Part shown: piece by piece, positions 1-19,800 of the stretch
Position numbering within the stretch: the first letter of the stretch is position 1
How the letters are laid out: each line of letters begins with the position of its first letter
NCBI GenBank assembly: GCA_964557535.1
Contig: CAZLAD010000001.1
Location: forward strand, 58,482-122,481
Length of the DNA: 64,000 bases
Direction: 5' to 3'
DNA from: an uncultured Candidatus Saccharibacteria bacterium
Lineage (GTDB): Bacteria; Patescibacteriota; Minisyncoccia; Phycocordibacterales; CSBR16-119
The notes under the pieces: generated by a model
The model's database searches: none
What the model was told of the DNA's origin: nothing
What the model saw: the letters and a program-made list of their open reading frames with translations, nothing else
Position numbers and translations under genes: made by a program

Positions 1-69
1 TCTTGCCATAAGTGGGTAAAAGATAACATAGAATAAAATTTCACGCAATAGGGTAAATGGGGAACGAAC

Positions 70-97
70 AAGGCCCAGCAGTTTACTGCTGGGCCTT
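70..97 (-). terminator. Rho-independent terminator for the 113..691 minus-strand gene
   Basis: Perfect 12-bp stem AAGGCCCAGCAG/CTGCTGGGCCTT with loop TTTA, just downstream of the minus-strand stop codon. Confidence 0.6.
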
Positions 98-112
98 GGT
101 GTCGTTATGTGC

Positions 113-691
113 TTAGGGTGCCAAGAAGTACATGACTTCACCCGAAAAGTAATTGAGTGATGTCCGGCTGTGAATGTCTCCGGCGCTAACGGATGTTTGT
201 CGGTGACCATCTTCTTGATTGTATAACCTGAAATTGGCCACCAAGATGTCATTTTCTTCGTTGCAGACAACAAAGTGTGTGGCTCTGCTGATCTCTTCTC
301 GAGACGGAGGTTGTTCTTGGTCGAATACCCATTCTGCCTGTAGTAGGGACATTGCGATACCACGCTCAACCAATGAAAGATTGAAGGTGTCGTGAGTCGC
401 TTTCTGGAGACCCGTTGCTCTTCTCATCAAGGAGCTGAGTGGAGTTGCTTTCTGGGCTTCCATTAGTGAAGTTGATTCGAGGTGTAGTCTTGCGAGACGG
501 CCTCCATTTCGCTTCGGGACGTATTTTCCAAATTGCTCTATGAGCTTTGGACGATTGACCCAGAATCGGGACCTGTCTCGAACACAACTTGTCAAAAAGG
601 TCCTGGGGGTTTGTGGTACGAGGATATCACTAACCTCGTAGCCGAATTCTTCAACGGCGTTCCATTTGGCAGTGGCTAAGGTGGTTGGCAT
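113..691 (-). CDS. Hypothetical protein (192 aa) in a GC-elevated segment
   Basis: Long ORF with coherent codon usage, about 50% GC against a 40% background, and its own terminator hairpin; no recognisable motifs. Confidence 0.4.
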   Translation of the reverse strand: MPTTLATAKWNAVEEFGYEVSDILVPQTPRTFLTSCVRDRSRFWVNRPKLIEQFGKYVPKRNGGRLARLHLESTSLMEAQKATPLSSLMRRATGLQKATHDTFNLSLVERGIAMSLLQAEWVFDQEQPPSREEISRATHFVVCNEENDILVANFRLYNQEDGHRQTSVSAGDIHSRTSLNYFSGEVMYFLAP

Positions 692-746
692 GGTTCATGG
701 TGTTTGTTCTGAAAGACAATACCATTTTGTTGAGTTTTTGTCAATC

Positions 747-2483
747 TTAAAAAAGATTTTCTGGGTTTACGCGGATTTGCCAGTCGGGGGTGAGGGAGGT
801 GAGAATTTCGGAGAGTTTGGGGTCTTGGAATTCTTCGTTCCAAATTTTCTTCGAAAGTTTTAAGATTATCAGACTTTCAAAAGTTCTCCCGCGTTTTATT
901 CGACGAGCTAGAGGATTCCAAATTGAAAGATGAGACACAAGAGGTGAGACATTAGAATCAAAATCATCCTTGTTTGACGTTCGTGAAATTCTCATCAGTG
1001 TCCCAAATGGTGGATAGCCGAATTTTTCACGCATGGATTTTTCAAATTCGTAAAATTCTTGCAAGTTTCCGTTCGCCAAAGTTTTTATGGCCAAATTTTC
1101 TATGTCGCGAGTTTGCAAAATTGCTTTCGGTGATAAATTTTTTACAGCGAATCCTAGCGAGAGAATTTTTTCGTAAATTTTATAACTTGGAATTGATAAA
1201 AGCGCGTCGAGAGAGATGATGGCGGTAACGTCGAGTGGTTTGTAGAGGTGGGGGATAGCGAGCTCCGTGCCAACCAAAATCGAATTTGGCGTTTCATAAA
1301 ACTTTTGGACGGTTTCGCGAACTTTTTTGTTAGTCTTCGTCACGTCACCATCGATTTGAAAGATTTTTTTCTTTGGAAAAAGTTTCTTCGCTTCGAGGGC
1401 GATAGTATCGGTGCCGATGCCGAGCGTGTCAAAATTCCAACTACCACAATTCCCACACCTGGTCTTTGGATCAAGTGTTGCACCAGTTTGCGGATTTAGA
1501 AGCACTCTTTCTCCCGCACGCTCTCGCAAAACGAGACCGATATCACCATCTTTTACAATTTGCCCACAATCATGACATACGACCGAGCTTCCGAGGCCCT
1601 TGCGCAAAGCAAAGGCAAAAGCTTTGTCGCTCGTCTTAAATTCCTCAAAAACTTTTTTGGAAAAAATAAAACTTTTTTTCTCTCGATTCTCCTTGTCACT
1701 CATATCAATCACACGAATGGAGGTCGGACCTTGGGTTTTGGTGATTTTCAAATTGTTTTCGACAATTGTTTCGAGTGAAAGTGGTGCGCCAATGAATTCT
1801 ATTTTGATTTTTAAATTTTCGGCCAAGGTACGGAAAAAATATCGCAGATCAAAATATGGTCGTTTGAGGCTTCGATACGCCGAAGAATGTTCATCGTGAA
1901 TTATGATTTTGCCCAAATCGTGTCGTGGCGTAAATGCAAATGATGGAGTCATGATGACGACTACGGGTCCAGGATTTTCCAAAATTTCTTGGTAACGAGC
2001 GAGCAATGTCTTTTTTCTCAAACTTCCGTGGATGACGAAAACATCTCTGTCTAAAGTTTCGGCTAGGCGTTCGACGGCACGGACGGTCGGCGCGATATGA
2101 AAAACTGATGAGCCGACCGTCCGTGATACTGGCTTCGGCAGATCTTCATAATGTTCCAAAAATTCTATTGGCAGAAAGTAGTTGACAATTTGTCCTAAAT
2201 TGCCGACAAAAAATCTTTTCGTTTTATCGCAGGCGATAAAAAATTCTTTGTAAAATTTGGTCTTACCTTTGACGCTTTCAATCTTTTTGAAACCAAATAT
2301 TGCTGTTTTGATTTCTTGTTTCAAGTCTTTGGCGTCGCGAACTCCGACGACCAGAGCGTCGTATTTTTTCTTTCTGACTTCGATCTCGACGACATCACCT
2401 ATAGAAATGTCTTTGGCCGAGAAATAGGTTAGAGAGTCTTTTTGGACTTTGGCGGATATTGGGCTGACTTCGACGAGTTTCAT
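747..2483 (-). CDS. priA: Primosomal protein N' (PriA)-like helicase with degenerate ATPase motifs
   Basis: Helicase motif II IIIHDEHSSAY matches DEEH. C-terminal Cys-rich Zn-binding region CHDCGQ...CGNCGS is present. The Walker A position reads VGSSVFHIAP instead of GxGKT, and motif III SAT reads GAP. The N-terminal 3'BD/WH region is short. Confidence 0.7.
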   Translation of the reverse strand: MKLVEVSPISAKVQKDSLTYFSAKDISIGDVVEIEVRKKKYDALVVGVRDAKDLKQEIKTAIFGFKKIESVKGKTKFYKEFFIACDKTKRFFVGNLGQIVNYFLPIEFLEHYEDLPKPVSRTVGSSVFHIAPTVRAVERLAETLDRDVFVIHGSLRKKTLLARYQEILENPGPVVVIMTPSFAFTPRHDLGKIIIHDEHSSAYRSLKRPYFDLRYFFRTLAENLKIKIEFIGAPLSLETIVENNLKITKTQGPTSIRVIDMSDKENREKKSFIFSKKVFEEFKTSDKAFAFALRKGLGSSVVCHDCGQIVKDGDIGLVLRERAGERVLLNPQTGATLDPKTRCGNCGSWNFDTLGIGTDTIALEAKKLFPKKKIFQIDGDVTKTNKKVRETVQKFYETPNSILVGTELAIPHLYKPLDVTAIISLDALLSIPSYKIYEKILSLGFAVKNLSPKAILQTRDIENLAIKTLANGNLQEFYEFEKSMREKFGYPPFGTLMRISRTSNKDDFDSNVSPLVSHLSIWNPLARRIKRGRTFESLIILKLSKKIWNEEFQDPKLSEILTSLTPDWQIRVNPENLF

Positions 2484-2600
2484 CCCGTTAGAGATAGCAA
2501 ACCTTAGTTTGCGTACCTTTGTTATTGTTTTGTAAATAATTTACGACCACGGCGATATTTCCATCAAGATTAATTGTAACCAAGTTATCTCTAACGGGAT
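2482..2600 (-). repeat. Intergenic IR-bounded element E1 (119 nt), reverse orientation, abutting the priA start codon
   Basis: Terminal inverted repeats ATCCCGTTAGAGAT (2482-2495) and ATCTCTAACGGGAT (2587-2600). Read on the minus strand it ends TACGCAAA-hairpin-TTTGCTATCTCTAACGGG followed directly by the priA ATG. Confidence 0.75.
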
Positions 2601-2661
2601 TCATGCCTTCATCATAGCATTTTGGAAATTCGACACGAAAAGGTAAGATAGACACGTAATT

Positions 2662-3981
2662 ATGAGTGACATATTCAAGATCAAGGGCGGGAAAAAACTA
2701 AAAGGCACCATTAGACCACAAGGCTCGAAAAACGAGGCTTTTCAGGTTATCGCCGCGACGCTTCTGACTGACGAAGACGTGGTTATTGAAAATATTCCAG
2801 AAGTTTTGGATATCTTGAATTTGTTCGAAATCCTAAAAATTTTGGGCGTCGAAATTACGAAGCTCGGTCACGGTTCTTACAAACTAAACGCAAGCGCCGT
2901 CGATGTCGAGAAAATGAAATCGGAAGAATTTTCAAAACTTTTCTCCAAACTTCGCGGATCACTTTTGGTTGCGGGTGCGATGCTTGGGCGATTTGGAAAA
3001 AGTGTCATTCAACAGCCAGGCGGAGACAAAATCGGAATTCGTCCAATCACAACTCACGTCAAAGCCTTTGCCGATATTGGTGCGGATGTAGAAACAAAAG
3101 GAGATTTTCAGGAACTTGTTTTGAAAAATATTGTTTCGAAAAGGATCACTTTGAGCGAAACTTCGGTTACTGGAACAGCCAACGCAATCCTCTCGGCTGT
3201 TTTGGAAAAAGAATCTCCGCATGTTTTGGAAATTTATAACGCCGGTTGCGAAACTTATATCCAGCAGCTTTGCAAAATGTTAAACAATATGGGCGCCAAG
3301 ATTTCTGGTGCAGGCACGAATCTTGTCGTTATCGAATCAGTCAAAAAACTACACGCTACAAATCACACTCTTTTGCCGGACATGCTCGAAATCGTCAGCT
3401 TGATCGTGCTTGGAGTTGTGTGTGGCGAAGGAATTTTTATAGAAGGTGCCAAGAGAGAACACATCGGCGAAATTACAAATATTGTTTTGAAGAAACTCGG
3501 TGTGCGTTTCGAAGAGCGAGAAGATGGATTTTTCGTTCCCGAACACAAAGAATATGAAATCCAAAAACCGAGAACTCCAGGAAAAAATATTCGTATCATT
3601 TATGATGACAAATGGCCGGGACTTTCGCCGGACCACATCAGTAGTCTGATTGTGCTTTGTGTTTATGCCAAGGGCATGGTGACTATTCGTCAACGCATGT
3701 TTGATCGACGACTTCTGTTCTGTGACGTTTTGAACACCATGGGCGCAGAAATTGTCATGTCGCATCATCAGGAAGTTACGGTTGTTGGGAATAATCGAAG
3801 TCGAACTTTGGTTGGTCTCGAGATGGCATCACCTGATATTCGCGCCGGCATGGCACTACTTATCGCCGCGCTTTCAGCCAAAGGCGAAAGTATTATCCAA
3901 AATGCGCATCAGATAAATCGTGGTTACGAACAAATCGTTGAGCGACTTCAAACTCTCGGCGCCGATATAGAATATGCCTAA
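2662..3981 (+). CDS. murA: UDP-N-acetylglucosamine 1-carboxyvinyltransferase (MurA), active-site Cys replaced by Asp
   Basis: Full-length MurA similarity (KGGKKLKGTIRPQGSKNEA...). The active-site loop reads QPGGDKIGIRP where E. coli has LPGGCAIGARP. Confidence 0.95.
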   Translation: MSDIFKIKGGKKLKGTIRPQGSKNEAFQVIAATLLTDEDVVIENIPEVLDILNLFEILKILGVEITKLGHGSYKLNASAVDVEKMKSEEFSKLFSKLRGSLLVAGAMLGRFGKSVIQQPGGDKIGIRPITTHVKAFADIGADVETKGDFQELVLKNIVSKRITLSETSVTGTANAILSAVLEKESPHVLEIYNAGCETYIQQLCKMLNNMGAKISGAGTNLVVIESVKKLHATNHTLLPDMLEIVSLIVLGVVCGEGIFIEGAKREHIGEITNIVLKKLGVRFEEREDGFFVPEHKEYEIQKPRTPGKNIRIIYDDKWPGLSPDHISSLIVLCVYAKGMVTIRQRMFDRRLLFCDVLNTMGAEIVMSHHQEVTVVGNNRSRTLVGLEMASPDIRAGMALLIAALSAKGESIIQNAHQINRGYEQIVERLQTLGADIEYA

Positions 3982-4996
3982 CATCGAAGAAAATGTTTCT
4001 CTAAAAGAATTTACGACCTTCAAAGTTGGCGGCAACGCCAAATACTTTTTTGTTCTAAAAGACAAGTCGGAAGTTCCCGAAGTTGTGAGATTTGCTCGCG
4101 AGAAAGAAATCCCTCTTTTCGTTTTAGGCGGAGGATCAAATATTATTGTTGCCGACGAAGAATTGAATGCATGCGTAATAAAAAATGAAATCCTTGGACG
4201 CGAAATTTTAAACGAAAACGATAACCAGGTTTTGATTTCTGTTGGCGCGGGCGAGAATTGGGATGAGTTTGTTGGCTTTTGTGTTGAGCGAGGATTTTCT
4301 GGGGTTGAGGCACTATCGGCAATTCCAGGAACCGTTGGTGGGGCACCGATTCAAAACATTGGAGCCTATGGCGCCGAAGCAGGGAACACCATCGACTCAG
4401 TCTTGGTCTATGATATTGAAAAAGAAAATTTTGAAACTTTGTTAAAGACCGATTGCGAGTTTGCTTATCGCGACAGTATCTTCAAGAAATTTCCAGGAAG
4501 ATTTGTTGTGCTTGAAGTGGTTTTTAAATTATCTAAAAATCAAATTATAACCGTTCCAAATTATCCGGGAGTTTCTGAAAAGTTGGCTGAAAAAAACGTT
4601 ACAAATCCAAATCTTACGGATATACGTCAAACAATTACTGAAATCCGCGCCAATAAACTTCCTGATCCACGAGTTATTCCAAACGTCGGATCATTTTTCA
4701 AAAACCCAATTGTCTCAAAAGAAGTTTTTGAAAAAATAAAATCTATATTTCCAAATGTAAAATATTTTGAAATGGGCCCAGACTTCAAGATTCCGGCAGG
4801 CTGGCTTATTGAGACGGCCGGTCTTCGGGGTGTGGATTTTGGAAAGGTGGGTACTTATGCGAACAATGCTTTGGTTTTGGTAAACAAAGGCGACGCCGGG
4901 TACGAAGACGTGCTGGCAGCTCAGGGGAAAATTGTCTCTACTATAGAAGATAAATTCGGTATAAAATTAGAACGGGAGCCGATTTTAGTTGATTGA
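3974..4996 (+). CDS. murB: UDP-N-acetylenolpyruvoylglucosamine reductase (MurB)
   Basis: FAD-binding N-terminus KEFTTFKVGGNAKYFF...LGGGSNIIV. Overlaps the murA stop by 8 nt. Confidence 0.9.
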   Translation: MPNIEENVSLKEFTTFKVGGNAKYFFVLKDKSEVPEVVRFAREKEIPLFVLGGGSNIIVADEELNACVIKNEILGREILNENDNQVLISVGAGENWDEFVGFCVERGFSGVEALSAIPGTVGGAPIQNIGAYGAEAGNTIDSVLVYDIEKENFETLLKTDCEFAYRDSIFKKFPGRFVVLEVVFKLSKNQIITVPNYPGVSEKLAEKNVTNPNLTDIRQTITEIRANKLPDPRVIPNVGSFFKNPIVSKEVFEKIKSIFPNVKYFEMGPDFKIPAGWLIETAGLRGVDFGKVGTYANNALVLVNKGDAGYEDVLAAQGKIVSTIEDKFGIKLEREPILVD

Positions 4997-6432
4997 ATAT
5001 GAAATTAGAAGAGATTTTAAAAAACATTGAAGTCCTCGAAACCGTTGGCTCGGCCGATGTTATGGTCGAGCACCTTTCTCTTGATTCTCGAAATATAAAA
5101 CCAGATACTTTGTTTTTTGCCGTGTCGGGGACGAAAGTCGACGGACATGCTTTTATCGATACGGCGATTTCGGCTGGTGCCAAAATAATTGTTTGTGAAA
5201 AATTTCCAGAAAATTTAAATTCTGAAGTTACTTACGTTCGCGTCGAAAATACGAGTGAAATTGTCGGGCTTGTGGCTAAAAATTTTTTCGGCAACAACGA
5301 TTTTGAAATGAAAATTGTCGGTGTGACAGGCACGAACGGCAAAACCACGATTGCGACAATGCTTTATCAATTATTTACTTTGCTTGGCCACAAAGGCGGA
5401 CTACTTTCGACGGTTGAAAATATTATCGGGACAGAAGTTCTTCCGGCGACGCATACGACAGGCGATGCAATTCAAATCCAAGAAAATTTGGCCAAGATGC
5501 GCGAGGCCAAGACGAAATATTGCTTCATGGAGGTGAGCTCGCATGCGATTGATCAGAATAGAATTGCCGGAATTGATTTTACCGGCGGAATTTTTACAAA
5601 CTTGACCCAAGACCATCTCGATTACCATCAGACCCTTGATGAATACGCCAAAGTCAAGAAAGCTTTTTTCGATTCTTTAACCAATCAAGCTTTTGCACTT
5701 TATAATTCTGACGATAATCGGGGAAGTTTTATGGTTGCTGATACTCACGCAAAAATAATTTCATACGGTAAAGTTGCCGCAGATTTTATTTTTAAAGTAA
5801 AAAAATCTTCTGCCGACGGACTCGAGCTCGTCATTAACGATACGATAGTTGTAACGTCGCTTGTCGGAGAATTCAATGCGTACAATATCACAGCAATATT
5901 TGCGGCCGCCGTGACACTCGGCGCCAAGCCAGACGACGTCGTAACCGCAATCGCGAAGCTTTCCGGCGCGCGCGGACGCATGGAAAAAGCAACGAGCGCT
6001 TCGGGAATTTTTGGCTTGGTTGATTATGCGCACACGCCGGACGCTCTCGAAAATGTTTTGAAGACGATCAATACTTTCAAACAAGGTCGTGTCGTTACGG
6101 TTTTTGGTGCGGGTGGCGACAGAGATAAAACCAAGCGTCCCATAATGGGTGAAATCGCCTCAAGACTTAGTGATGTTGTTGTCGTTACATCAGATAATCC
6201 GCGAAGCGAACGACCCGAAGACATCGCCGATGACATTCTCGCCGGGATCAAAGATAAAACAAATGTCGAGACGATTCTCGATCGTCGTGAAGCGATCAAG
6301 CGGGCGGTCGAGATCTCAAAGCCTGGGGACATTGTTTTGGTCGCGGGCAAAGGCCACGAAGATTATCAGGATGTCGCCGGAGTCAAAAGTCATTTTTCTG
6401 ATTTAGAAGTTTTGAGAGAATTTTTATCATGA
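4993..6432 (+). CDS. murE: UDP-MurNAc-L-Ala-D-Glu:meso-DAP ligase (MurE)
   Basis: Mur ligase P-loop VGVTGTNGKTT. The DNPR motif (VTSDNPRSE) indicates meso-diaminopimelate specificity. The first ATG is at 4999; 4993 is a TTG. Confidence 0.92.
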   Translation: MNMKLEEILKNIEVLETVGSADVMVEHLSLDSRNIKPDTLFFAVSGTKVDGHAFIDTAISAGAKIIVCEKFPENLNSEVTYVRVENTSEIVGLVAKNFFGNNDFEMKIVGVTGTNGKTTIATMLYQLFTLLGHKGGLLSTVENIIGTEVLPATHTTGDAIQIQENLAKMREAKTKYCFMEVSSHAIDQNRIAGIDFTGGIFTNLTQDHLDYHQTLDEYAKVKKAFFDSLTNQAFALYNSDDNRGSFMVADTHAKIISYGKVAADFIFKVKKSSADGLELVINDTIVVTSLVGEFNAYNITAIFAAAVTLGAKPDDVVTAIAKLSGARGRMEKATSASGIFGLVDYAHTPDALENVLKTINTFKQGRVVTVFGAGGDRDKTKRPIMGEIASRLSDVVVVTSDNPRSERPEDIADDILAGIKDKTNVETILDRREAIKRAVEISKPGDIVLVAGKGHEDYQDVAGVKSHFSDLEVLREFLS

Positions 6433-7751
6433 GTAATTGGCAAGAATTTTTCAAAGGAAAAAAAGTAACGGTCATGGGACTCGGACTTTTGGGTCGGGGG
6501 ATTAACGATGTGAAATTTTTAGCGAAATATTGCGCTGAAGTCTTGGTGACCGATTTAAAATCTGCCGAAGAATTAAAAACCTCGCTTGATGAGATAAAAG
6601 ATTTTCAAAATATAAAACTAGTTCTTGGCGAGCATCGATTGGAAGACTTTGAAAATCGTGATTTTGTTCTAAAAGCCGCTGGGGTGCCGATTGACTCTCT
6701 ATATATAGAACATGCCAAGAAAAATAATGTGCCGGTTTATATGGATGAGGCGCTTTTTGTGAAGTTGGCTGGAGATATTCTAACCATCGGCGTGACTGGT
6801 ACGCGTGGCAAGACAACGACGACAATGATGATTGAGAAAATTTTGTCTGACGCGGGCAAACCAATACTTCTCGGAGGCAATATTCGCGGAATGGCGACAT
6901 TGCCACTTCTCGAAACTTTCAAATCCGGCGATATCATACTTATGGAACTGTCTTCGTGGCAACTTCAAGGCTTTGGTGACATAAAATTGAGTCCGCATAT
7001 TTCCGTCTTCACTAATTTCTACGATGATCATTTAAATTATTACAAGAACGACAAGAATTTGTATTTTGCCGACAAAGCTTTGATTTACAAAAATCAAACA
7101 CCACAAGATTTTCTAGTATATGGAGCGGATATTTCCGAAAATTTCAAAGAGGACATCAGAAATTCTGCCGGAAATAAATTTGAAATTTCTATCAAAGACT
7201 TTCCAGAGAATTTGGATTTGCGAATTCCGGGCGAGCACAACAAGATAAATGCGGCGCTCGCCCGACAAGTCGGTCTCGTTCTTGGTATTGACGAAGATTC
7301 GATTCAAAATTCCCTAAAAAATTTTTCTGGAGTTGCGGGACGTCTAGAATTTGTTCGAAATTTCAAGGGAATTGATTTTTACAACGACACGACAGCGACG
7401 AGCCCCGTTGCGACCATAACTGCCATCAATTCGCTTCACCAAAAAGATAAAAATTTGATTTTGATAATGGGTGGTGCGGACAAAAAGTTAGTCATGGATG
7501 AACTCTTGCCGGTCATAAAAAACAAAGTTTCAAAAGTTGTAATGCTTCCTGGGACAGGAACAGATTTGATAAAAGATAAATTTGAAACTAAAATTGAGGT
7601 GTCAAATATGAAGGAGGCAGTTTCGAAGGCCTTGGAAATATCGGAAAGTGGCGATACGGTGCTTTTGTCTCCAGCTTTTGCTTCGTTTGGTTTGTTTAAA
7701 AATGAATTTGATCGCGGAGATCAATTTGATGAAGCAGTAAAATCTTTATGA
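6429..7751 (+). CDS. murD: UDP-MurNAc-L-Ala:D-Glu ligase (MurD)
   Basis: N-terminal Rossmann-like VTVMGLGLLGRG and P-loop GVTGTRGKTTTT. ATGA overlap with murE. Confidence 0.9.
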   Translation: MSNWQEFFKGKKVTVMGLGLLGRGINDVKFLAKYCAEVLVTDLKSAEELKTSLDEIKDFQNIKLVLGEHRLEDFENRDFVLKAAGVPIDSLYIEHAKKNNVPVYMDEALFVKLAGDILTIGVTGTRGKTTTTMMIEKILSDAGKPILLGGNIRGMATLPLLETFKSGDIILMELSSWQLQGFGDIKLSPHISVFTNFYDDHLNYYKNDKNLYFADKALIYKNQTPQDFLVYGADISENFKEDIRNSAGNKFEISIKDFPENLDLRIPGEHNKINAALARQVGLVLGIDEDSIQNSLKNFSGVAGRLEFVRNFKGIDFYNDTTATSPVATITAINSLHQKDKNLILIMGGADKKLVMDELLPVIKNKVSKVVMLPGTGTDLIKDKFETKIEVSNMKEAVSKALEISESGDTVLLSPAFASFGLFKNEFDRGDQFDEAVKSL

Positions 7752-9046
7752 TAGAAAATTTCGACAAGTTTAAAAAAGTGCATTTCATCGGCATTGGCGG
7801 AATCGGTATTTCGGCTGTTGCCCAGATGTTTTTAGGAGAAGGCAAGAAAGTTTCTGGTTCAGATATTAGTGAATCAATGGTTACGGAAACTTTGCGAGAT
7901 TTGGGTGCAAAGATAAGTCTCGGTGCGTCGGCCAACAATATTTCTCCGGACACGGATTTGGTTGTCTATACGATTGCTATTGCGTCCGATAATCCGGAAA
8001 TGCTCGAGGCCAAGAAACGTAATCTGCCAATCATTTCTTATCCGGAGACACTCGCCGTAATTTCAAAAAATAAAAAAACTATTGCCGTTACTGGGACGCA
8101 CGGTAAAACGACGACGACGTCAATGATTGCCAAGGTGATGAAAGATTCTGGTTTCGATCCGACGGTCATCGTCGGGAGTTTCTTGAAAGAATGGAAAAGT
8201 AATTTCTTGCCGGGCAAAAGCGCGTATTTTGTTGTCGAGGGCTGCGAATATCGCAGGTCATTTTTAAATCTTCATCCATACATTTTGGTCATCAACAACA
8301 TCGAAGCCGATCATTTGGATTACTATAAAGATTTGGCTGATATAAAAAGTGCTTTTCGAGAACTTGCTGAGCGCGTTCCGTCGGATGGATTTATTGTTAC
8401 AGATTTGTCGAGTGATGCCGTCCGTGAAGTTGTCCAAGGACTTTCTTGTCAGGTGATTGATTATCGAAAAGTCGATTTGTCGGGCTTTGTTCTAGACAAA
8501 ATGCCAGGCGAGCACAATCTAAACAACGCTCGAGTTGCTCTCTCGGTTTTAGAAATTCTCGGCGGTAAAAGAGAAGAGGTAAAAAAATCTTTGAAAGATT
8601 TTGGCGGAGTGTGGCGACGGTTTGAGTTCAAAGGCCAAACGCAGTCTGGTGCCGTGGTCTACGACGATTACGCGCATCATCCAACCGAGATTCGGGCGTT
8701 TTTGTCCGGGGCGCGAGAAAAGTTTTCTGACAAGAAAATTTTGGCAGTTTTCCAACCGCATATGGTTTCTCGAACCAAAGATTTCTTGGACGAATTTGCC
8801 GAGGCACTTTCGGGATTTGATAAAGTTCTAATTCTACCGATTTTCAAGGCCCGTGACGAAGAAGAGCAAAACATTTCTTCGAAAGATTTGGTTGAAAAAA
8901 TAAATAAATTAAAAAATGTCGCCGAGACGGTGTCGGATTTTGATGGGGTTAAGAAAATTGTTGGAGAGCTGACAGACGAAGGCTGGGTCGTTGCCACAAT
9001 CGGTGCTGGCAAAACCAATATTTTAGCCGAAGAATTAGTTATATGA
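7748..9046 (+). CDS. murC: UDP-MurNAc:L-alanine ligase (MurC)
   Basis: N-terminus HFIGIGGIGISAVAQ...VSGSD and P-loop VTGTHGKTTTT. ATGA overlap with murD. Confidence 0.92.
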   Translation: MIENFDKFKKVHFIGIGGIGISAVAQMFLGEGKKVSGSDISESMVTETLRDLGAKISLGASANNISPDTDLVVYTIAIASDNPEMLEAKKRNLPIISYPETLAVISKNKKTIAVTGTHGKTTTTSMIAKVMKDSGFDPTVIVGSFLKEWKSNFLPGKSAYFVVEGCEYRRSFLNLHPYILVINNIEADHLDYYKDLADIKSAFRELAERVPSDGFIVTDLSSDAVREVVQGLSCQVIDYRKVDLSGFVLDKMPGEHNLNNARVALSVLEILGGKREEVKKSLKDFGGVWRRFEFKGQTQSGAVVYDDYAHHPTEIRAFLSGAREKFSDKKILAVFQPHMVSRTKDFLDEFAEALSGFDKVLILPIFKARDEEEQNISSKDLVEKINKLKNVAETVSDFDGVKKIVGELTDEGWVVATIGAGKTNILAEELVI

Positions 9047-10290
9047 CATTAAACGAGCTTTACAAAATTTTTTCTGAGAAAAATCTCAATATCTCGACCG
9101 ACACTAGGAAGATTTCACCCGGCGATATTTTTATCGCGCTTCGGGGGGAAAATTTTGATGGTGGAAAATTTATCGATGAAGCTTTTGAAAAAGGCGCGAG
9201 TTTCGTTGTGTCGGAAAATTCTGACATGCTGATGGATCGAAGTGTGTACGCGACGGACTCGCTTATGGCGCTTCAAGAATTTGCGAAAATGCACCGCGAC
9301 AGTCTGCAGATTCCGATAATTGCCATCACCGGTTCGAATGGTAAGACGACGACCAAAGAACTGGTCAGAGTTGTGCTTGCGAAAAAATACAAAGTTCTCG
9401 CAAGTCCAGCAAGTTTTAACAATCACATCGGCGTACCACTTACGATTCTTTCTATCAAACCAGAACATGAAATCGCCGTGATTGAAATGGGGGACAATCA
9501 CGAAGGTGAAATCAGACGTCTTTGCGAAATTGCGCGACCGACGCACGGACTTATTACGAATATCGGGCGTGATCACATTGGCGAAGCGGGCGGGGTAGAG
9601 GCAAATGTTCGGTCAAAACTTGAATTTTATGAATATTGTAAAAATTCCGGAGCGATAAACTTCCTCAATAAAAATGATGAAATTCTATTCCAACATTCGT
9701 ACGAATGTGCGAATGAATTTTATGTAGAGGGAAAAGTTTTGGAGGCGAATGATTATTTGAAAGTCGAAATCGATGGTCAAGAAATCAAAACCAAACTTGT
9801 CGGCGACTACAATCTCGACAATATTCGCGCAACTTTCACAATCGGCCGACATTTTGAAGTTCCAGTAGAAGAAATTGTTTCGGCTCTCGAGAATTACGAA
9901 CCGACAAACAATCGTTCGCAGAAAGTTATGACCGAGAAAAATGAAATTATTCTCGATGCTTACAATGCAAACCCGGACAGCATGAAGCTCGCACTAGAAA
10001 ATTTCGCCAAAATAAAAACCGATCGTAAGAAAATTGCAATCTTGGGCGATATGTTTGAGCTTGGAAGTTTCGCGGGGGAAGAACACCAAAAAGTTTTGGA
10101 CCTTGTGTCTGATTTAAAAATTGAAAGCTATTTCGCTGGCGTAGAATTTAAAAAGCTTGGAGTTGGATTTGAAACAACAAACGAACTTATCGAACATTTA
10201 AAAGAAAACAAAATTGAAAATTCTCTCATCCTCATCAAAGGCTCGCGAGGTATGAAGATGGAAAAAGTTTTGGAAGAAAATCTTTTATAG
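9043..10290 (+). CDS. murF: UDP-MurNAc-tripeptide:D-Ala-D-Ala ligase (MurF)
   Basis: P-loop ITGSNGKTTTKE and Mur ligase central and C-terminal domains. ATGA overlap with murC. Confidence 0.9.
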   Translation: MTLNELYKIFSEKNLNISTDTRKISPGDIFIALRGENFDGGKFIDEAFEKGASFVVSENSDMLMDRSVYATDSLMALQEFAKMHRDSLQIPIIAITGSNGKTTTKELVRVVLAKKYKVLASPASFNNHIGVPLTILSIKPEHEIAVIEMGDNHEGEIRRLCEIARPTHGLITNIGRDHIGEAGGVEANVRSKLEFYEYCKNSGAINFLNKNDEILFQHSYECANEFYVEGKVLEANDYLKVEIDGQEIKTKLVGDYNLDNIRATFTIGRHFEVPVEEIVSALENYEPTNNRSQKVMTEKNEIILDAYNANPDSMKLALENFAKIKTDRKKIAILGDMFELGSFAGEEHQKVLDLVSDLKIESYFAGVEFKKLGVGFETTNELIEHLKENKIENSLILIKGSRGMKMEKVLEENLL

Positions 10291-10302
10291 CTCAAATGAA
10301 AA

Positions 10303-10327
10303 ACCCGTCACATGGACGGGTTCTTCT
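10303..10327. terminator. Bidirectional intrinsic terminator between murF (+) and the 10345..10659 gene (-)
   Basis: Stem ACCCGTC/GACGGGT with loop ACATG, followed by TCTTCT on the + strand and an A-run on the other side. Confidence 0.6.
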
Positions 10328-10344
10328 GCGTTGTCATGGGTTGC

Positions 10345-10659
10345 TCAACGTGCGATCTTGCCCTTGAGGGCCCCACTCCACCGACCTTGCTTGTAGGCAA
10401 TGATCACGGTGTCACCAGGCTTGATCACCTCGTAAAGTTCCTTCGAGATGAAGACGCCGATCTCTCCCGCTTCCGTCGTGGCGTAGAAGAGCGCAACGTC
10501 ATCGTAAGTCGGATAGCCATTCAAGGCCAGCCGGAGTCGTCTTGTCCGATTCAGGTGGGTGATCGTGACCTTTTCGTAGCGGCTCTCGACGAACAGAAGT
10601 TCCAGCCAGCTAGGGACAGGAAGCGGGGTGTTTGAAAAAGCGAAGGGGACGTGTGTCAT
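10345..10659 (-). CDS. Hypothetical protein with a C-terminal AbrB/MazE-like (swapped-hairpin) motif, in a GC-rich islet
   Basis: About 55% GC. The C-terminal GEIGVFISKELYEVIKPGDTVII fits the G.v.iPkeiR..lgi..GD.v.i pattern of AbrB/SpoVT/MazE domains. A minus-strand promoter TTGACG-17-TATTTT lies at 10688-10716, so the second Met (MTHVPF, 10659) is the likely start; the ORF track extends to 10716. Confidence 0.45.
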   Translation of the reverse strand: MTHVPFAFSNTPLPVPSWLELLFVESRYEKVTITHLNRTRRLRLALNGYPTYDDVALFYATTEAGEIGVFISKELYEVIKPGDTVIIAYKQGRWSGALKGKIAR

Positions 10660-10687
10660 TGTTGGGGTGCGTTGGTTTCTTAAATAC

Positions 10688-10716
10688 AAAATATCAGAAG
10701 GATTACAAAACGTCAA
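10688..10716 (-). promoter_or_regulatory. Sigma70-like promoter for the 10345..10659 gene
   Basis: On the minus strand: TTGACG, a 17-nt spacer, then TATTTT, about 30 nt upstream of the ATG. Confidence 0.45.
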
Positions 10717-10740
10717 GGGTATTTAGCCTTCGCTTAAAAA

Positions 10741-10749
10741 TGCTATACT
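10741..10749 (+). promoter_or_regulatory. Extended -10 (TGcTATACT) 9 nt upstream of the mreB ATG; leaderless-type promoter
   Basis: TGcTATACT at 10741-10749, ATG at 10759, and no Shine-Dalgarno. Confidence 0.55.
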
Positions 10750-10758
10750 CCATTCCAC

Positions 10759-11772
10759 ATGGCATTTTTTTCAAAGAAAATCGGAGTTGATTTAGGCACG
10801 GCCAATATTTTGGTCTATGTGCCGGGCAAGGGCGTCGTTTTGAACGAACCGTCGGTTGTGGCCGTGTCTGAACAAGACAACCGTATCCTCGCCATTGGTG
10901 ATGCCGCCAAACAAATGATTGGTAGAACGCCCGAAAATATCGTTGCGCATCGTCCGATGAAAGACGGCGTGATTGCCGACTATCGTATGACCGAGGCAAT
11001 GCTCAAATATTTCATCGGTCGGGCAATGGGAAGTTTCTCGCTTTGGAAACCAGACGTAATGGTGTCGGTGCCGGCTGGAGTTACTTCGACCGAACGTCGT
11101 GCTGTTGTCGAAGCGACCATGAAAGCTGGTGCTAGAAACGCATATATTGTAAAAGAACCAATTCTCGCCGCAATCGGCGCCGGAATTCCAATTTATGAGT
11201 CGCGTGGGCACATGATTGTCGACATCGGCGGAGGTACAACCGACGTGGCGGTGATATGCCTCGGCGGAATTGTCGCATGTACGTCGGTCAAAGTCGCTGG
11301 AGATAAAATTGATTCTGCGATTGCGGATTTTATCAAGAAAACTTTTAATCTCGCGATTGGTGATCGCACTGCCGAACAAGTGAAAATCAAAATTGGTTCA
11401 GCCGTTGTGATGGAAGAACCACTTCTCGCAACTATCAAAGGCCGGGATTTTGTCCAGGGACTTCCACGCACCGCGCAGGTGTCGACGAACGATATAGTGA
11501 AAGCAATTGATAAAGAACTCCGTGCCATCGTGCGTGCTATCAAAGATGTACTCCAAGAAACTCCGCCGGAACTTGCCTCTGACATCATCGATCAGGGTAT
11601 AATTCTGACAGGCGGATCATCTTTGCTTCGAAATCTTCCAGAACTCATCTATCAGAAAACTGGCGTGAAGGCGAGGCTTGCCGATGAACCGCTTTATTGT
11701 GTCGTGCGGGGAACGGGCGTCGCGCTTGATCACTTGGATACCTACAAACGTTCGATTATTTCTAAACGTTAA
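10759..11772 (+). CDS. mreB: Rod-shape-determining actin homolog MreB
   Basis: IGVDLGTANILVYV, DIGGGTTDVAVI and LTGGSSLLRNL actin-fold motifs. Confidence 0.93.
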   Translation: MAFFSKKIGVDLGTANILVYVPGKGVVLNEPSVVAVSEQDNRILAIGDAAKQMIGRTPENIVAHRPMKDGVIADYRMTEAMLKYFIGRAMGSFSLWKPDVMVSVPAGVTSTERRAVVEATMKAGARNAYIVKEPILAAIGAGIPIYESRGHMIVDIGGGTTDVAVICLGGIVACTSVKVAGDKIDSAIADFIKKTFNLAIGDRTAEQVKIKIGSAVVMEEPLLATIKGRDFVQGLPRTAQVSTNDIVKAIDKELRAIVRAIKDVLQETPPELASDIIDQGIILTGGSSLLRNLPELIYQKTGVKARLADEPLYCVVRGTGVALDHLDTYKRSIISKR

Positions 11773-11775
11773 ACT

Positions 11776-12447
11776 ATGGGACTTGAAGAATTGAAAAATG
11801 GTTTGAATCATCACGCGTATCTGATCGAAGGTGATTTGGAGCTTTCTTTCAAGGAACTTTTGCTTGCACTCGAACGACTGGAGATACCGACGCTTGGTAA
11901 TCCAGACCTTTTTATGAAAGAATACGAAAACCTGCTCATCGATCACGCGCGTGAGATCAAAGATTTCCAAAGTGAATCAGCTTCCGAGAAAAACAAAAAG
12001 AAAATCATGATTTTAAAAACACGGATGTTTTCTTATCCGGCCCAGAACGCACTTCTGAAAGTTTTCGAAGAACCACGTCCGGGCGTGGTCGTGTTTCTCA
12101 TCATGCCGGATTCGACAAAACTTTATCCGACGCTTCGTTCTAGACTTCTTGGCACTGTCGGTGAATACGCCCCGCATGATCAGCTAAAAAAAGATGCGAA
12201 AGTTTTCTTGAAGGGGACAATCAAAAATCGCTTGGACTTCCTGAAAAAGTTTTTGGATATCGAATCAAAGCCCAAGCTCAAAGAAGTCGCACTTAATTTT
12301 CTAAACCAACTCGAAGAAGAACTGGCCAAAAGCGATACTTTGGCGGACAAGGACAAAGTCAAAGACATTTATATGGTCAAAAAATACATCGGCGATCAGG
12401 GTTCGAGCCCAAAGATTCTCCTTGAGCATTTGGCAGCGATTTTGTAA
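11776..12447 (+). CDS. holB: DNA polymerase III delta'-like clamp-loader subunit (HolB-like)
   Basis: NALLKVFEEPRPGVVVFLI...TLRSRL matches the delta' sensor and SRC region. No P-loop is present, which is typical of delta'. Confidence 0.6.
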   Translation: MGLEELKNGLNHHAYLIEGDLELSFKELLLALERLEIPTLGNPDLFMKEYENLLIDHAREIKDFQSESASEKNKKKIMILKTRMFSYPAQNALLKVFEEPRPGVVVFLIMPDSTKLYPTLRSRLLGTVGEYAPHDQLKKDAKVFLKGTIKNRLDFLKKFLDIESKPKLKEVALNFLNQLEEELAKSDTLADKDKVKDIYMVKKYIGDQGSSPKILLEHLAAIL

Positions 12448-12477
12448 GTTTTGGGTATAACATTTGAAAATGTCGTA

Positions 12478-12582
12478 TTGTTAAAAGTTCGCGTACGCGG
12501 ATTTTTAACAATATTTAGATTTATTAATATATTAATAAATTCATAAATCCGTAAATTCATAAACTAATTTATGAATTTACGG
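12478..12582. repeat. Cluster of three consecutive palindromes in the holB-to-GC-island spacer
   Basis: (1) TTGTTAAAA...TTTTAACAA enclosing the palindrome CGCGTACGCG (12478-12511). (2) A perfect 22-nt palindrome ATTTATTAATATATTAATAAAT (12519-12540). (3) CCGTAAATTCATAAA-ctaa-TTTATGAATTTACGG with 15-bp arms (12549-12582). Confidence 0.8.
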
Positions 12583-12638
12583 ATCTTAATACCTTACATC
12601 AGTTAGGTGATGCAAAGGTATTGAACTATTACGGAGAC

Positions 12639-12666
12639 TTGACAAGAATTTTGATTCGTGTATAAT
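12639..12666 (+). promoter_or_regulatory. Near-consensus sigma70 promoter (TTGACA-16-TATAAT)
   Basis: TTGACA at 12639-12644 and TATAAT at 12661-12666. An AAAGAGG RBS-like motif lies 10 nt upstream of the ATG at 12724. Confidence 0.7.
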
Positions 12667-12723
12667 ACCCCACGAACCAAAGCTCTTGTGGCAATATCGC
12701 CACATACAAAAGAGGTTCGCAAA

Positions 12724-13215
12724 ATGCCCCAATTCCTCAAGCGACCGTGGCACGTCCTCGGTCTGGTGGCCTTGTTGGCCATCGGTTATACGATCCCACT
12801 GCAGATGAAGGCCGCCAAGTTCGACAGCTACACCGCCAGCGCGCTGACCGTTCCGGATGATCCGGCGCTCGTGACCCACGACCGGTTGGCCGTGAGCTAC
12901 GAGAACCATTTCGCCAATTGGACCCTGATCGACGGCCGCGGCACCAGCACGGTGAGCGTGACCACGGATGACCCGTGGAGCGTGAGCACCAGCGAAAGCC
13001 CGCATTTCGAAGGATATCAGCATTACATCATCGAGAACTTCAAGCACGACGTGAACTTCAGCATTTCGGATGTGAACGTGAGCGCCCAGGTGGCCGGTGG
13101 CCTGCTGGTGCCCATCGTGGGCCCGGCGGACAGCGATCATCAGCGATGGAGCAGTACGGCCCGCGATTACCGTTTGGCAGTGCGCGTGGTGAACCTGCGA
13201 ACGTGTCGGTGCTAG
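12724..13215 (+). CDS. Secreted or exported hypothetical protein (about 164 aa) in a 60% GC cassette
   Basis: N-terminal hydrophobic signal/TM (WHVLGLVALLAIGYTIPLQ). GC3-rich, E. coli-like codon usage (ctg, ggc, agc, acc, ccg), which is foreign to the host. It has its own promoter upstream and a terminator downstream. The antisense ORF 12586..13221 is judged an artefact. Confidence 0.55.
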   Translation: MPQFLKRPWHVLGLVALLAIGYTIPLQMKAAKFDSYTASALTVPDDPALVTHDRLAVSYENHFANWTLIDGRGTSTVSVTTDDPWSVSTSESPHFEGYQHYIIENFKHDVNFSISDVNVSAQVAGGLLVPIVGPADSDHQRWSSTARDYRLAVRVVNLRTCRC

Positions 13216-13285
13216 AAGCACGAGCTTCCTAGCACCTTCACTCTTTCCGCCCGCACGGGAACCCCCGAGCGAGTAGGAAACCCCG

Positions 13286-13319
13286 AACCCCGGCCCGTAA
13301 GCCGGGGTTCTTCTTTTTT
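13286..13319 (+). terminator. Rho-independent terminator of the GC-rich cassette
   Basis: Stem AACCCCGGC/GCCGGGGTT with loop CCGTAA, followed by TCTTCTTTTTTA. Confidence 0.8.
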
Positions 13320-13333
13320 ATAAAACAAATTTC

Positions 13334-13342
13334 TGCTACAAT
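13334..13342 (+). promoter_or_regulatory. Extended -10 TGcTACAAT 6 nt upstream of the frr ATG (leaderless)
   Basis: TGCTACAAT, then ttgccc, then ATG at 13349. Confidence 0.55.
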
Positions 13343-13348
13343 TTGCCC

Positions 13349-13903
13349 ATGCAATTTAATTTCAAACCTTTCGAAGACGCGGTCAAAAATACCAAAGATT
13401 GGCTTACCAAAGAATACGCCTCGCTTCATACCGGCGCTGCGAGTCCGATGGTTCTTGACGGTATCATGGTTGATTCTTATGGTACGCGTCAGCCGATCAA
13501 AAACGTCGCCTCGATTTCGATCGAAGACCCAAAAACTTTGCGTGTGATGCCGTGGGACAAGGGTCAGCTCAAAGAAATCGAAAAAGAAATCATGACTTCG
13601 GACCTTGGACTTTCTGTTGTAATCGATGCCACCGGGCTTCGCGTGATTTTTCCCATGCTTACGACCGAGACCCGTGAAAAACTTGTTAAGGTTTTAAAAA
13701 CCAAACTCGAAGACGCGCGAGTAACTGTTCGCAAGGAGCGCGAAAACAATTTACGAGAAATTGATCGTATGGCGCGCGAAGGTGAAATGTCCGAGGACGA
13801 GAAAATCCGCGCCAAGGATCGTTTGCAGGGTATAGTCGATGAAGCCAATACCGATCTTGAAAAGATATTTTTAGCCAAAGAAGCCGTTGTAATGGGTAAA
13901 TAA
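13349..13903 (+). CDS. frr: Ribosome recycling factor
   Basis: Full-length RRF similarity (…HTGAASPMVLDGIMVDSYG…TREKLVKVLKTKLEDARVTVRKERENNLREI…). The ORF track starts at a TTG at 13343. Confidence 0.9.
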   Translation: MQFNFKPFEDAVKNTKDWLTKEYASLHTGAASPMVLDGIMVDSYGTRQPIKNVASISIEDPKTLRVMPWDKGQLKEIEKEIMTSDLGLSVVIDATGLRVIFPMLTTETREKLVKVLKTKLEDARVTVRKERENNLREIDRMAREGEMSEDEKIRAKDRLQGIVDEANTDLEKIFLAKEAVVMGK

Positions 13904-13907
13904 TTTT

Positions 13908-15011
13908 GTGTCCGTTATTATTTTTATAATCATTTTGGCCGTTCTTATTATCGTTCATGAATACGGGCACTTTATTGTGGCGAAAAAAAGCGGAATTCGG
14001 GTTGACGAATTTGGATTGGGCTACCCACCAAAAGCCAAAACATTATTTAGAAAAAACGGAACAGATTTTACTTTAAACTGGCTTCCGTTTGGCGGATTTG
14101 TAAAAATCTTTGGTGAAAATCCGGACGATGAATCACTCGAAGGAATTCATAAAAACTCTGCATTTGTAAACAAGCCAAAACTTATTCAAGCAGGGGTTCT
14201 TTTTGCTGGTCCGGCGTTTAATTTTATTTTCGCTTGGCTCATTATCATCATTACACTGTTCGTCGGACTCCCAACAACTATCAATGATTCTATGCAGGAA
14301 CGATTTGTTTCTGATCAGGCGACAATTGTTACTCAGGTCGTGTCTGGTTCGCCGGCCGAAGTCGCCGGACTTGTCGTGGGTGACAAGATTTCTTCGGTTG
14401 TGGTTGGTGTTGAAAAATACGATCATATAAATACCAAAGATTTGCGTGATTTAGTTATTGCCAATCCTGAAAAAACATTTGTTATAAATTACAAAAGAGT
14501 CGACGCAGAAAATAGCGTGGAATTAACACCAAAATTAGATGTCGAAACGGGCGAAAAATTATTGGGTGTTGGGATAGATAATTACGGTATTTATAAACCA
14601 AATTTTAGCAATGCTGTCCTCGACAGTTTTAAATTTACGGGCGCAATGATTGCTAACATATCTGTGGCTTTGTGGTCGCTTATCAAAGGGGTTTTTGTTG
14701 GTGGGGCAGATATTGCAAATTTGACTGGCCCGATTGGAATTGTCGGACTCGTGGGAGATGCAAGCAAAATGGGCTTGGCGTACGTTTTGACATTTACCGC
14801 TCTTATATCGATAAACCTAGGACTCATCAATTTGATACCTTTTCCGGCTCTAGATGGCGGAAGACTATTGTTTTTGCTTATTGAGAAAATAAAGGGTGGA
14901 CGAGTGAACTACAAAATTTTAAATTTTTTGAATTTAATTGGTTTTTCAATTTTGATACTTCTGATGTTGTTTATAAGCTACAAAGACATTGGGAGACTCA
15001 TAGGATCCTAG
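13908..15011 (+). CDS. rseP: Site-2 zinc metalloprotease RseP/RasP family (M50) with PDZ domain
   Basis: HEYGHFIVAK HExxH motif in TM1, a central PDZ-like region, a C-terminal LDGG motif, and multiple TM helices. GTG start. Confidence 0.85.
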   Translation: MSVIIFIIILAVLIIVHEYGHFIVAKKSGIRVDEFGLGYPPKAKTLFRKNGTDFTLNWLPFGGFVKIFGENPDDESLEGIHKNSAFVNKPKLIQAGVLFAGPAFNFIFAWLIIIITLFVGLPTTINDSMQERFVSDQATIVTQVVSGSPAEVAGLVVGDKISSVVVGVEKYDHINTKDLRDLVIANPEKTFVINYKRVDAENSVELTPKLDVETGEKLLGVGIDNYGIYKPNFSNAVLDSFKFTGAMIANISVALWSLIKGVFVGGADIANLTGPIGIVGLVGDASKMGLAYVLTFTALISINLGLINLIPFPALDGGRLLFLLIEKIKGGRVNYKILNFLNLIGFSILILLMLFISYKDIGRLIGS

Positions 15012-15127
15012 CCCAAATCTCTGGGGTTGACAGGTATTTGACATTAATTTGCTTTAATGATAGTATACAAACTACAAAGATTTTGAATTTAAAAAGAATA
15101 AATTATTAGCAATTTAAAGGTATATTT

Positions 15128-16165: not shown

Positions 16166-16173
16166 GAAAGAAC

Positions 16174-16262: not shown

Positions 16263-16265
16263 CTA

Positions 16266-16274
16266 TGCTACAAT
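16266..16274 (+). promoter_or_regulatory. Extended -10 TGcTACAAT 6 nt upstream of the ATG at 16281 (leaderless)
   Basis: TGCTACAAT, then tattcc, then ATG. Confidence 0.5.
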
Positions 16275-16280
16275 TATTCC

Positions 16281-17528: not shown

Positions 17529-17531
17529 TTT

Positions 17532-19788: not shown

Positions 19789-19800
19789 GCTGTAGCAACG

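Follow-up and report, generated by a model that had tools for sequence, protein, structure and literature searches.

A PriA-like pseudohelicase of Patescibacteria predicted to act as a scaffold in replication restart

The stretch of DNA analysed here, 64,000 nucleotides of contig CAZLAD010000001.1 (positions 58,482 to 122,481, referred to below as the window), carries at 747..2483 on its reverse strand a gene for a 578-amino acid (aa) homolog of the replication restart protein PriA, here called pseudo-PriA. We consider it likely that this protein is a naturally occurring pseudohelicase form of PriA that serves as a scaffold for recognising forks and reloading DnaB. Judged against Escherichia coli PriA, its ATPase elements have been lost and its elements for binding forks, binding single-stranded DNA (ssDNA) and docking partners have been kept, and the protein is predicted to have lost the ability to bind or hydrolyse ATP. 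Purifying selection acts on the gene, and the motor-less state goes back to the ancestor of a very large Paceibacterota/Parcubacteria clade. Its conservation across that clade suggests that replication restart in these bacteria requires nothing more of PriA than a scaffold that recognises forks.

Loss of the helicase motor in a PriA homolog

The gene and its features are laid out as follows, in window coordinates (Ec, E. coli PriA numbering; (-), reverse strand):

747..2483 (-): complete pseudo-PriA gene, 578 codons plus the stop at 747..749
2169..2483 (-): 3'-DNA-binding domain (3'BD), residues 1-105; weak PF17764 match, beta-barrel plus helices in the model
2109..2168 (-): short linker, residues 106-125, in place of the winged-helix domain and the beta1/Walker A/alpha1 segment
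2088..2123 (-): motif Ia strand region RTVGSSVFHIAP, residues 121-132; not Walker A
1734..2108 (-): remnant of helicase domain 1 (HD1), residues 126-250, without the P-loop strand and helix
1887..1898 (-): HDEH, residues 196-199, at the Walker B/motif II position
1842..1880 (-): AYRSLKRPYFDLR, residues 202-214, equivalent of the aromatic-rich (junction) loop
1782..1790 (-): GAP, residues 232-234, at the motif III (SAT) position
1593..1607 (-): LRKGL, residues 293-297, motif IV ssDNA-pore residues, retained
1428..1595 (-): reduced cysteine-rich region (CRR), residues 297-352, aligned with Ec 430-485
1566..1577 (-): C303-H-D-C306, first CxxC pair
1431..1457 (-): C343-G-N-C346-G-S-W-N-F, fourth CxxC pair
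1059..1427 (-): helicase domain 2 (HD2) after the CRR, residues 353-475, from the alignment
1407..1421 (-): GIGTD within HD2, retained
1242..1271 (-): degenerate motif V within HD2, GTELAIPHLY
1122..1148 (-): motif VI remnant, AVKNLSPKA, with the GRAGR arginines deleted
750..1058 (-): C-terminal domain (CTD), residues 476-578, predicted local distance difference test (pLDDT) ~90-95, covered by the PriA structural alignments

A first-pass annotation made from the letters of the window had taken this gene for a PriA homolog, and the searches bear this out: as judged from profile matches and a predicted structure, its product shares both its descent and its fold with PriA. In the list of open reading frames (ORFs) it runs uninterrupted from ATG to stop, and its first methionine is in line with that of its homologs. 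The NCBIfam profile TIGR00595 ('replication restart helicase PriA') matches the protein at E=9.6e-45 and 153.1 bits, residues 129-506 pairing with profile positions 34-429 of 509; the NF0040xx models score it at 66-153 bits against cutoffs of 763-1249. A sequence search of the PDB retrieved the solved PriA structures 4NL4, 6DGD, 6DCR and 8FAK at E~5e-22, the matches beginning at residue 129, which corresponds to about residue 269 of Klebsiella PriA, downstream of Walker A. The sole Pfam match is a weak one to the 3'BD (PF17764, residues 17-105, E=0.0055, 17 bits against a cutoff of 22.7), a family that is precomputed for many relatives of the protein. The AlphaFold2 model, built from a family alignment of 64 sequences, has a mean pLDDT of 87.2 and a predicted template modelling score (pTM) of 0.83. 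Its nine best Foldseek matches in the PDB are PriA chains without exception (E values as low as 6e-34, TM-scores 0.62-0.70), the highest TM-score of 0.70 being that of the E. coli PriA construct 6DCR, which lacks the winged-helix domain (delta-WH); other superfamily 2 (SF2) helicases trail at E~3e-5 and TM<0.33.

E. coli K-12 priA, aligned with 118 full-length homologs, served as the ruler for the helicase motifs (Walker A 224-231, DEEH 320-323, aromatic-rich loop 328-335, SAT 356-358, CxxC pairs starting at 436, 445, 463 and 476, motif V 538-548, motif VI 580-587). In this alignment nothing is left of the beta1/P-loop/alpha1 segment (Ec ~216-243): gaps span Ec ~106-243 opposite the linker and take out the winged-helix domain as well. 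About 20 residues bridge the 3'BD and the first helicase strand, and DSSP assigns no strand ahead of residue 126. The first-pass annotation was right that GxGKT is missing, but the string that it placed there, RTVGSSVFHIAP, does not lie at Walker A. It pairs with Ec 243-254, AQGKQALVMVPE (A243-Q-G-K-Q-A-L-V-M-V-P-E), a segment made up of the last part of helix alpha1 and the motif Ia strand, and the beta-strand 126-130 of the model falls within it.

No GxxxxGK[ST] occurs in the protein or in the remaining two frames of the gene strand. Strict and loose patterns applied to three frames, in search of a hidden P-loop or a frameshift, returned out-of-frame GKS strings and VKGKTK at residues ~70-75 alone, the latter rejected as a chance match within the 3'BD. 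The GKS or GKT strings of 16 relatives were also rejected as P-loops, all of them lying at Ec G245-K246 ahead of the motif Ia strand. The initial suspicion that the alignment might hide a shifted P-loop is contradicted by profile, pairwise and multiple alignments, by two models and by the frame check; profile alignment, comparison with relatives from the candidate phyla radiation (CPR) and structure prediction were all without a canonical GKT P-loop.

That Walker A is masked by a frameshift in the sequencing, an assembly error or a misplaced start codon has a negligible probability in our view. The ORF is continuous, the other frames hold no P-loop, the start agrees with that of the homologs, and the same length and architecture recur in a 94%-identical ortholog (L004), in a 68%-identical metagenome-assembled genome (MAG) from ENA (L003) and in dozens of other assemblies. 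Locus L002 is DNA-identical to the window and may share its sample; the independent support is therefore that of L003, L004 and the numerous further assemblies. Nor is the motif loss a genome-wide artefact, because two helicases of the same window keep their motifs: DnaB has an intact ARPSVGKT, and a DEAD-box helicase has TGTGKT, DEVD, SAT and HRIGRTGR.

The remaining catalytic motifs are altered as well. HDEH had been read as an intact motif II; it is not, because in register with DEEH 320-323 the Mg-binding D320 is replaced by H and the catalytic E321 by D. It is also not conserved as a motif, since no more than 8 of the 22 closest relatives have it, the others reading EHES or ENES. Motif III does read G232-A233-P234 where E. 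coli has S356-A357-T358, as had been noticed at the outset. Beyond the motifs named in the first-pass annotation, motifs V and VI are lost too: GTQMLAKGHHF of E. coli has become GTEL-AIPHLY, and QVAGRAGR has become AVKNLS through a 5-residue deletion that takes out the arginines. With motif I deleted, motif II reading HDEH, motif III reading GAP, motif V degenerate and motif VI deleted, the model still contains two RecA-like SF2 lobes of PriA-type topology, HD1 being without its P-loop strand and helix. Scoring below the equivalog cutoff of TIGR00595 and lacking the defining catalytic motifs, the protein is more aptly named a PriA-like pseudohelicase than a 'replication restart helicase'.

A cryptic ATPase, with ATP bound or hydrolysed at a non-canonical or shifted site such as HDEH and nearby residues, is very improbable. 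HDEH is superficially like DExH, E198 (Ec E322) is nearly invariant among relatives, and a second, weaker nucleotide site is possible in E. coli PriA (PMC5778457). Against this stand the physical absence of the P-loop strand and helix, the deletion of the arginine-finger motif VI, the degenerate motifs III and V and the replacement of HDEH in most close relatives; the 'GKS' of some relatives coincides with the motif Ia strand, a place at which E. coli too has GK.

The elements that E. coli PriA uses to hold DNA have fared differently. The N-terminal truncation described by the first-pass annotation concerns the winged-helix domain, which is missing here as in the 620-aa and 650-aa relatives, but the 3'BD is complete (residues 1-~105) and the model is confident across residues 1-110. 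The 3'BD pocket motif L18-T19-Y20-F21 (2421..2432; F16-D17-Y18 in E. coli) is at least 90% conserved across the clade. The junction loop AYRSLKRPYFDLR (AYRxxKRPYFDLR) is remodelled yet strongly conserved, with Y203, P209, D212 and R214 at 90% or above; in E. coli PriA the aromatic-rich loop, which follows motif II, is wedged into the junction of the fork (PMC5175346, PMC10175261). LRKGL corresponds to Ec N426-R427-R428-G429-F430, with R294, K295 and G296 invariant or at least 90% conserved, and the motif IV residues R427/R428/G429 of E. coli PriA contact lagging-strand ssDNA in the pore (PMC13594977).

The CRR is inserted in HD2, as in PriA. Zinc-binding CxxC pairs are present as first reported, but they number two of four: the first and fourth remain, and the inner pairs (Ec 445/448 and 463/466) have become D/G and N/T. 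Because both inner pairs were lost together, the outer cysteines probably pair into one zinc site, and one of the two Cys4 sites would have been lost. D305 (Ec D438) and S348 (Ec S481) are conserved and the adjoining W349 is nearly invariant; D438 and S481 of the E. coli CRR dock PriB (PMC10175261). D359 corresponds to Ec E492, at the CRR-UP interface. In the CTD, G-Y-P-P-F stands for L-P-P-W of E. coli, and R485, Y490, P491 and P492 are invariant or nearly so.

Distribution, erosion and selection in the clade

The homolog search gave 165 significant proteins, and the counts given here rest on the 120 listed. Their tiers, with identities to pseudo-PriA (the query), are:

Query tier: ~575-590 aa, at least 50% identity, two CxxC pairs
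Middle tier: ~606-635 aa, 40-50% identity, two CxxC pairs
Outer tier: ~630-690 aa, ~30% identity, four CxxC pairs

A P-loop was found in none of the 120 homologs listed, by strict or by looser patterns, and none of them has a GRxGR. An exhaustive profile search of 1.84 billion representatives, of which the best 150 were taken (all at 625 bits or more), added 143 new representatives at 50% identity. None of these carries a GRxGR, or a P-loop where Walker A would lie; four CxxC pairs are found in 128 and two in 7. In total the clade comprises >260 sequences in >150 clusters at 50% identity (Paceibacterota/Parcubacteria), and motifs I, II, III, V and VI appear to have been lost throughout. A few members with four CxxC pairs (P0229, P0134, P0184 and P0203) carry a DExH-like Walker B string, such as IILDEEH in P0229; they have no Walker A or motif VI and may represent less-eroded lineages.

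The outer-tier proteins that are named come from Candidatus Paceibacterota, Nomurabacteria or the 'Patescibacteria group', and RpoA of the window groups among Paceibacterota, Parcubacteria, Wolfebacteria and Nomurabacteria. Public taxonomic labels look unreliable: the 53%-identical ortholog P0017 is labelled 'Bacteroidetes bacterium', probably a mislabelled MAG, and the L003 MAG is labelled 'uncultured Candidatus Saccharibacteria' against an RpoA placement in Paceibacterota/Parcubacteria.

In the 650-aa and 620-aa tiers beta1 and alpha1 are present, with G-x-x-G-x-G-K-T changed to Q-x-x-x-x-[DE]-R-[IL]. The K230 column holds Arg in 82/82 and 14/14 sequences respectively, the Q is found in 81/82, and Walker B reads E-H-E-S. 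An AlphaFold model of a 650-aa member (pLDDT 86.9) has a strand at 134-138, two residues, and a helix at 141-157; since only two residues separate strand and helix, this member is without a phosphate-binding loop. Neighbour-joining trees place the two-CxxC forms as a monophyletic group inside the four-CxxC radiation, with the ~580-aa forms deepest. These nested positions suggest a stepwise erosion, of the catalytic residues first, then of the inner zinc site and then of beta1 and alpha1. The ~650-aa forms have lost the catalytic residues and kept eight cysteines and the strand and helix with an invariant Arg at K230; the ~620-aa forms have lost the inner zinc site; and the ~580-aa forms, pseudo-PriA included, have lost beta1 and alpha1. 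As the 606-aa P0027 clusters with one 580-aa subgroup in the neighbour-joining tree, the final deletion may have occurred once or twice.

The former P-loop/alpha1 region (Ec columns 224-243) of P0024-P0120 carries a new, strongly conserved motif, Q-x4-[DE]-R-[IL]-x-x-Y-K-x-x-I-R-x-x-F-A. Both R positions are found in 82/82 sequences, and the Q-x4-[DE]-R-[IL] element is dispensable in the query tier.

Between pseudo-PriA and its L004 ortholog, which comes from an independent sample, dN/dS is 0.18 at a dS of 0.21. About 70 positions are at least 90% conserved and are spread evenly over all domains, and the divergent synteny with murA is kept in L003 and L004. It is therefore quite improbable, in our judgement, that the gene is a functionless remnant nearing loss in a reduced genome. 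The progressive shedding of domains and motifs and a dN/dS above that of the neighbours would fit such decay, but full-length ORFs are intact in >260 sequences down to ~30% identity, the conserved positions reach into every domain, dN/dS is well under 1, the place beside murA is held and the predicted fold is confident.

The dS between the window (747..6432) and L004 varies about ten-fold among adjacent genes (priA 0.21, murA 0.12, murE 0.09, murB 0.02), which may reflect local recombination or mosaicism. Immediately downstream of priA lies a 192-aa ORF at 113..691 (-) with no Pfam family, found in L002 at 2030..2608; L004 is without it and has ybeY directly after priA, and the ORF appears to be a variable insertion.

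Predicted role and genomic setting

The idea of an ATPase-dead PriA, raised by the first-pass annotation, agrees with the clade-wide loss of motifs, the low dN/dS and the retention of DNA-binding and docking residues. By analogy with E. coli PriA, the protein would bind DNA, dock a partner and serve restart. The 3'BD pocket (L-T-Y-F), together with the junction loop in its remodelled form, would recognise an abandoned fork or D-loop, and the Arg/Lys of motif IV would hold lagging-strand ssDNA jointly with the surface formed by CRR, HD2 and CTD. Through the conserved face of its CRR (C-x-D-C ... C-x-x-C-G-S-W-N) the protein would recruit a partner that reloads DnaB, directly or through an adaptor, and pseudo-PriA itself would not unwind the lagging-strand duplex. 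The presumed client, to which a functional link is proposed, is encoded in the window:

41607..42998 (-): dnaB, 463 aa, P-loop ARPSVGKT intact; Pfam DnaB and DnaB_C, E=1e-99

The gene recR directly follows dnaB (40983..42998, -, for the pair), and no DnaC, DnaI or DciA loader adjoins them or occurs among the ORFs scanned.

The scaffold and DnaB-loading role has precedents. ATPase-dead K230R and K230A forms of E. coli PriA support restart through PriA-PriB in vivo and the loading of DnaB in vitro (PMC5778457, PMC10175261), and PriA of Deinococcus radiodurans has no ATPase or helicase activity and still binds forks and DnaB (PMC4504706).

Several points weigh against a restart scaffold. Pseudo-PriA is known here from sequence comparison and predicted structure, and losing the central strand of the P-loop may have changed lobe 1 beyond AlphaFold's picture. 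The TIGR00595 score of 153.1 bits lies below the curated equivalog cutoff of 230.35, although the E-value still indicates homology. The dN/dS of the gene is three to four times that of the adjacent murA, murB and murE (0.04-0.06), and constraint on pseudo-PriA thus appears relaxed relative to these neighbours. Among the window ORFs scanned there was no Pfam match to PriB, DnaT, DnaD, DnaI, DnaC or DciA, and a weak-threshold Pfam scan of the unannotated neighbours gave no DciA, DnaD, PriB or DnaT. To our knowledge PriB is not expected outside some proteobacteria, and the docking-face argument is for that reason one of analogy only. When its helicase is dead, E. coli PriA cannot serve the PriA-PriC pathway, nor can it act on forks whose lagging strand is duplex (PMC5778457, PMC13594977). 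In E. coli a duplex at that place blocks the CRR-UP state and requires PriA unwinding (PMC13594977); a motor-less PriA must hence use ssDNA-gapped forks or another helicase. Finally, coverage of the genome is 64 kb, and a second, canonical PriA may lie elsewhere.

This last point bears on the possibility that the protein has been neofunctionalised for a job other than restart, perhaps beside a canonical PriA elsewhere: as a structural DNA-binding factor, a regulator or the primary DnaB-loading adaptor at the origin. We regard this as unlikely, though less so than the other alternatives. The junction loop and the former P-loop region have been remodelled into new clade-conserved motifs, the winged-helix domain and one zinc site are lost, and within the 64 kb in view no known restart partner is nearby. 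On the other hand, the residues that were kept are those that E. coli PriA uses for binding forks and ssDNA and for partner docking, tblastn with E. coli PriA found no second PriA-like locus in the 64-kb window, and the PriA-like proteins named as Paceibacterota, Nomurabacteria or Patescibacteria among the matches listed are all of the motor-less type. Moreover, paralogs are seldom kept by such small genomes. A restart scaffold is our preferred reading of pseudo-PriA.

The rest of the window yielded a number of separate observations. No tRNA, rRNA or other Rfam family reached the gathering threshold in 1..64000, and promoter and terminator sites in 1..3000 were no more frequent than in shuffles. 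The cell-wall genes lie in two clusters, murA-B-E-D-C-F at 2662..10290 and dacA-mraY-?-ftsW-murG at 52540..57769. Right after mreB, a 223-aa protein like the delta' subunit of DNA polymerase III (11776..12447, +; profile positions 76-152 match) has HAYLIEGDLELS at the place of the P-loop, an ATPase-fold replication protein without a P-loop; such absence is usual for delta'. A 345-aa protein (15128..16165, +) has the unusual architecture of an N-terminal Sigma70 region 4 with HARE-HTH. Three ORFs of 422, 393 and 441 aa (16260..17528, 23177..24358 and 24360..25685, +) have no Pfam match at E<=0.001, the 393-aa one showing a faint FtsA-like match at E=0.026. The alanyl-tRNA synthetase of the window is short, at 607 aa.

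Comparison with known PriA proteins

Pseudo-PriA shares with canonical PriA of E. coli and Klebsiella pneumoniae the order 3'BD, HD1, HD2 with a zinc-ribbon CRR, and CTD, at a TM-score of ~0.7, together with R-[RK]-G, the first and last CxxC, G-[IL]-G-T-[DE], [IL]-L-[IV]-G-T-[QE] and [LY]-P-P-[WF]. Unlike these proteins, it has no winged-helix domain and no beta1/Walker A/alpha1; it has HDEH and GAP at motifs II and III, motif V is degenerate and motif VI deleted, and its 578 aa compare with 732 and its one Cys4 site with two. Motor-dead forms have been made in the laboratory: E. coli priA300 (K230R), K230A and K230D still assemble the preprimosome and load DnaB. These are single-residue changes in an otherwise complete PriA that works with PriB, DnaT and DnaC, whereas pseudo-PriA lacks whole structural elements. 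Likewise, the E. coli delta-WH construct 6DCR is without the winged-helix domain, but it is engineered and has the full ATPase core and both zinc sites.

A loss of the motor in only one further lineage has come to our attention. A 2017 review holds PriA helicase activity to be conserved 'except in Deinococcus' (PMC5778457), and in the literature that we searched on PriA in Patescibacteria or CPR, or as a pseudohelicase, the Deinococcus case was the sole one. If a motor-less PriA does serve restart across the clade described here, it would overturn the textbook view, in which Deinococcus is the one exception to a conservation of the PriA helicase motifs throughout the bacteria. For the broader proposition that a very large CPR radiation (>150 clusters at 50% identity) runs its replication restart with a motor-less PriA, we put the chances at even. 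If it is true, the erosion series, which has no winged-helix domain at any stage, would map the minimal PriA for fork recognition and DnaB reloading, and such bacteria would provide a naturally pared-down setting in which to ask whether PriA by itself recruits DnaB where there is no PriB, DnaT or DnaD. The ~650-aa, ~620-aa and ~580-aa forms constitute a natural deletion series in which the P-loop, the winged-helix domain, the second zinc site and motifs III, V and VI can be lost, and the 3'BD pocket, the junction loop, the motif IV Arg/Lys, the outer zinc ribbon (D...GSW face) and the CTD cannot. A second natural motor loss supports the view that the core job of PriA is structure-specific fork recognition and scaffolding, not unwinding.

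Such proteins are easily misjudged in annotation. Wherever NCBI names them the label is 'hypothetical protein', and the JGI label is primosomal protein N'; scoring below the TIGR00595 cutoff and often called hypothetical, they may cause CPR genomes to be mis-scored as PriA-less or credited with a PriA helicase.

The closest precedent is the Deinococcus-Thermus PriA (Lopper et al. 2015, PMC4504706), a natural PriA without functional Walker A and B for which a scaffold role is presumed. Its Lys-to-Arg change at the K230 position is also seen in the ~650-aa and ~620-aa relatives of pseudo-PriA (82/82 and 14/14). The Deinococcus protein, however, has a P-loop that can still be recognised (GRT), along with the remainder of the core, whereas in the clade described here the loop glycines are gone throughout. 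Walker B is degenerate in pseudo-PriA and in its 620-aa and 650-aa relatives. Walker A, substituted (K to R) in Deinococcus, is absent from pseudo-PriA, which has lost the whole element and, in addition, motifs III, V and VI, the winged-helix domain and a zinc site. The Deinococcus protein is known from biochemistry and pseudo-PriA from sequence and model, and they belong to different phyla, pseudo-PriA to the Patescibacteria. Since both phylum and pattern of loss differ, an independent origin is suggested; the motor was probably lost independently of the Deinococcus lineage, and common descent of the two losses is unlikely. What the two cases share is the principle of a PriA without a motor; new here are the lineage, the larger clade and a far more radical loss of the motor.

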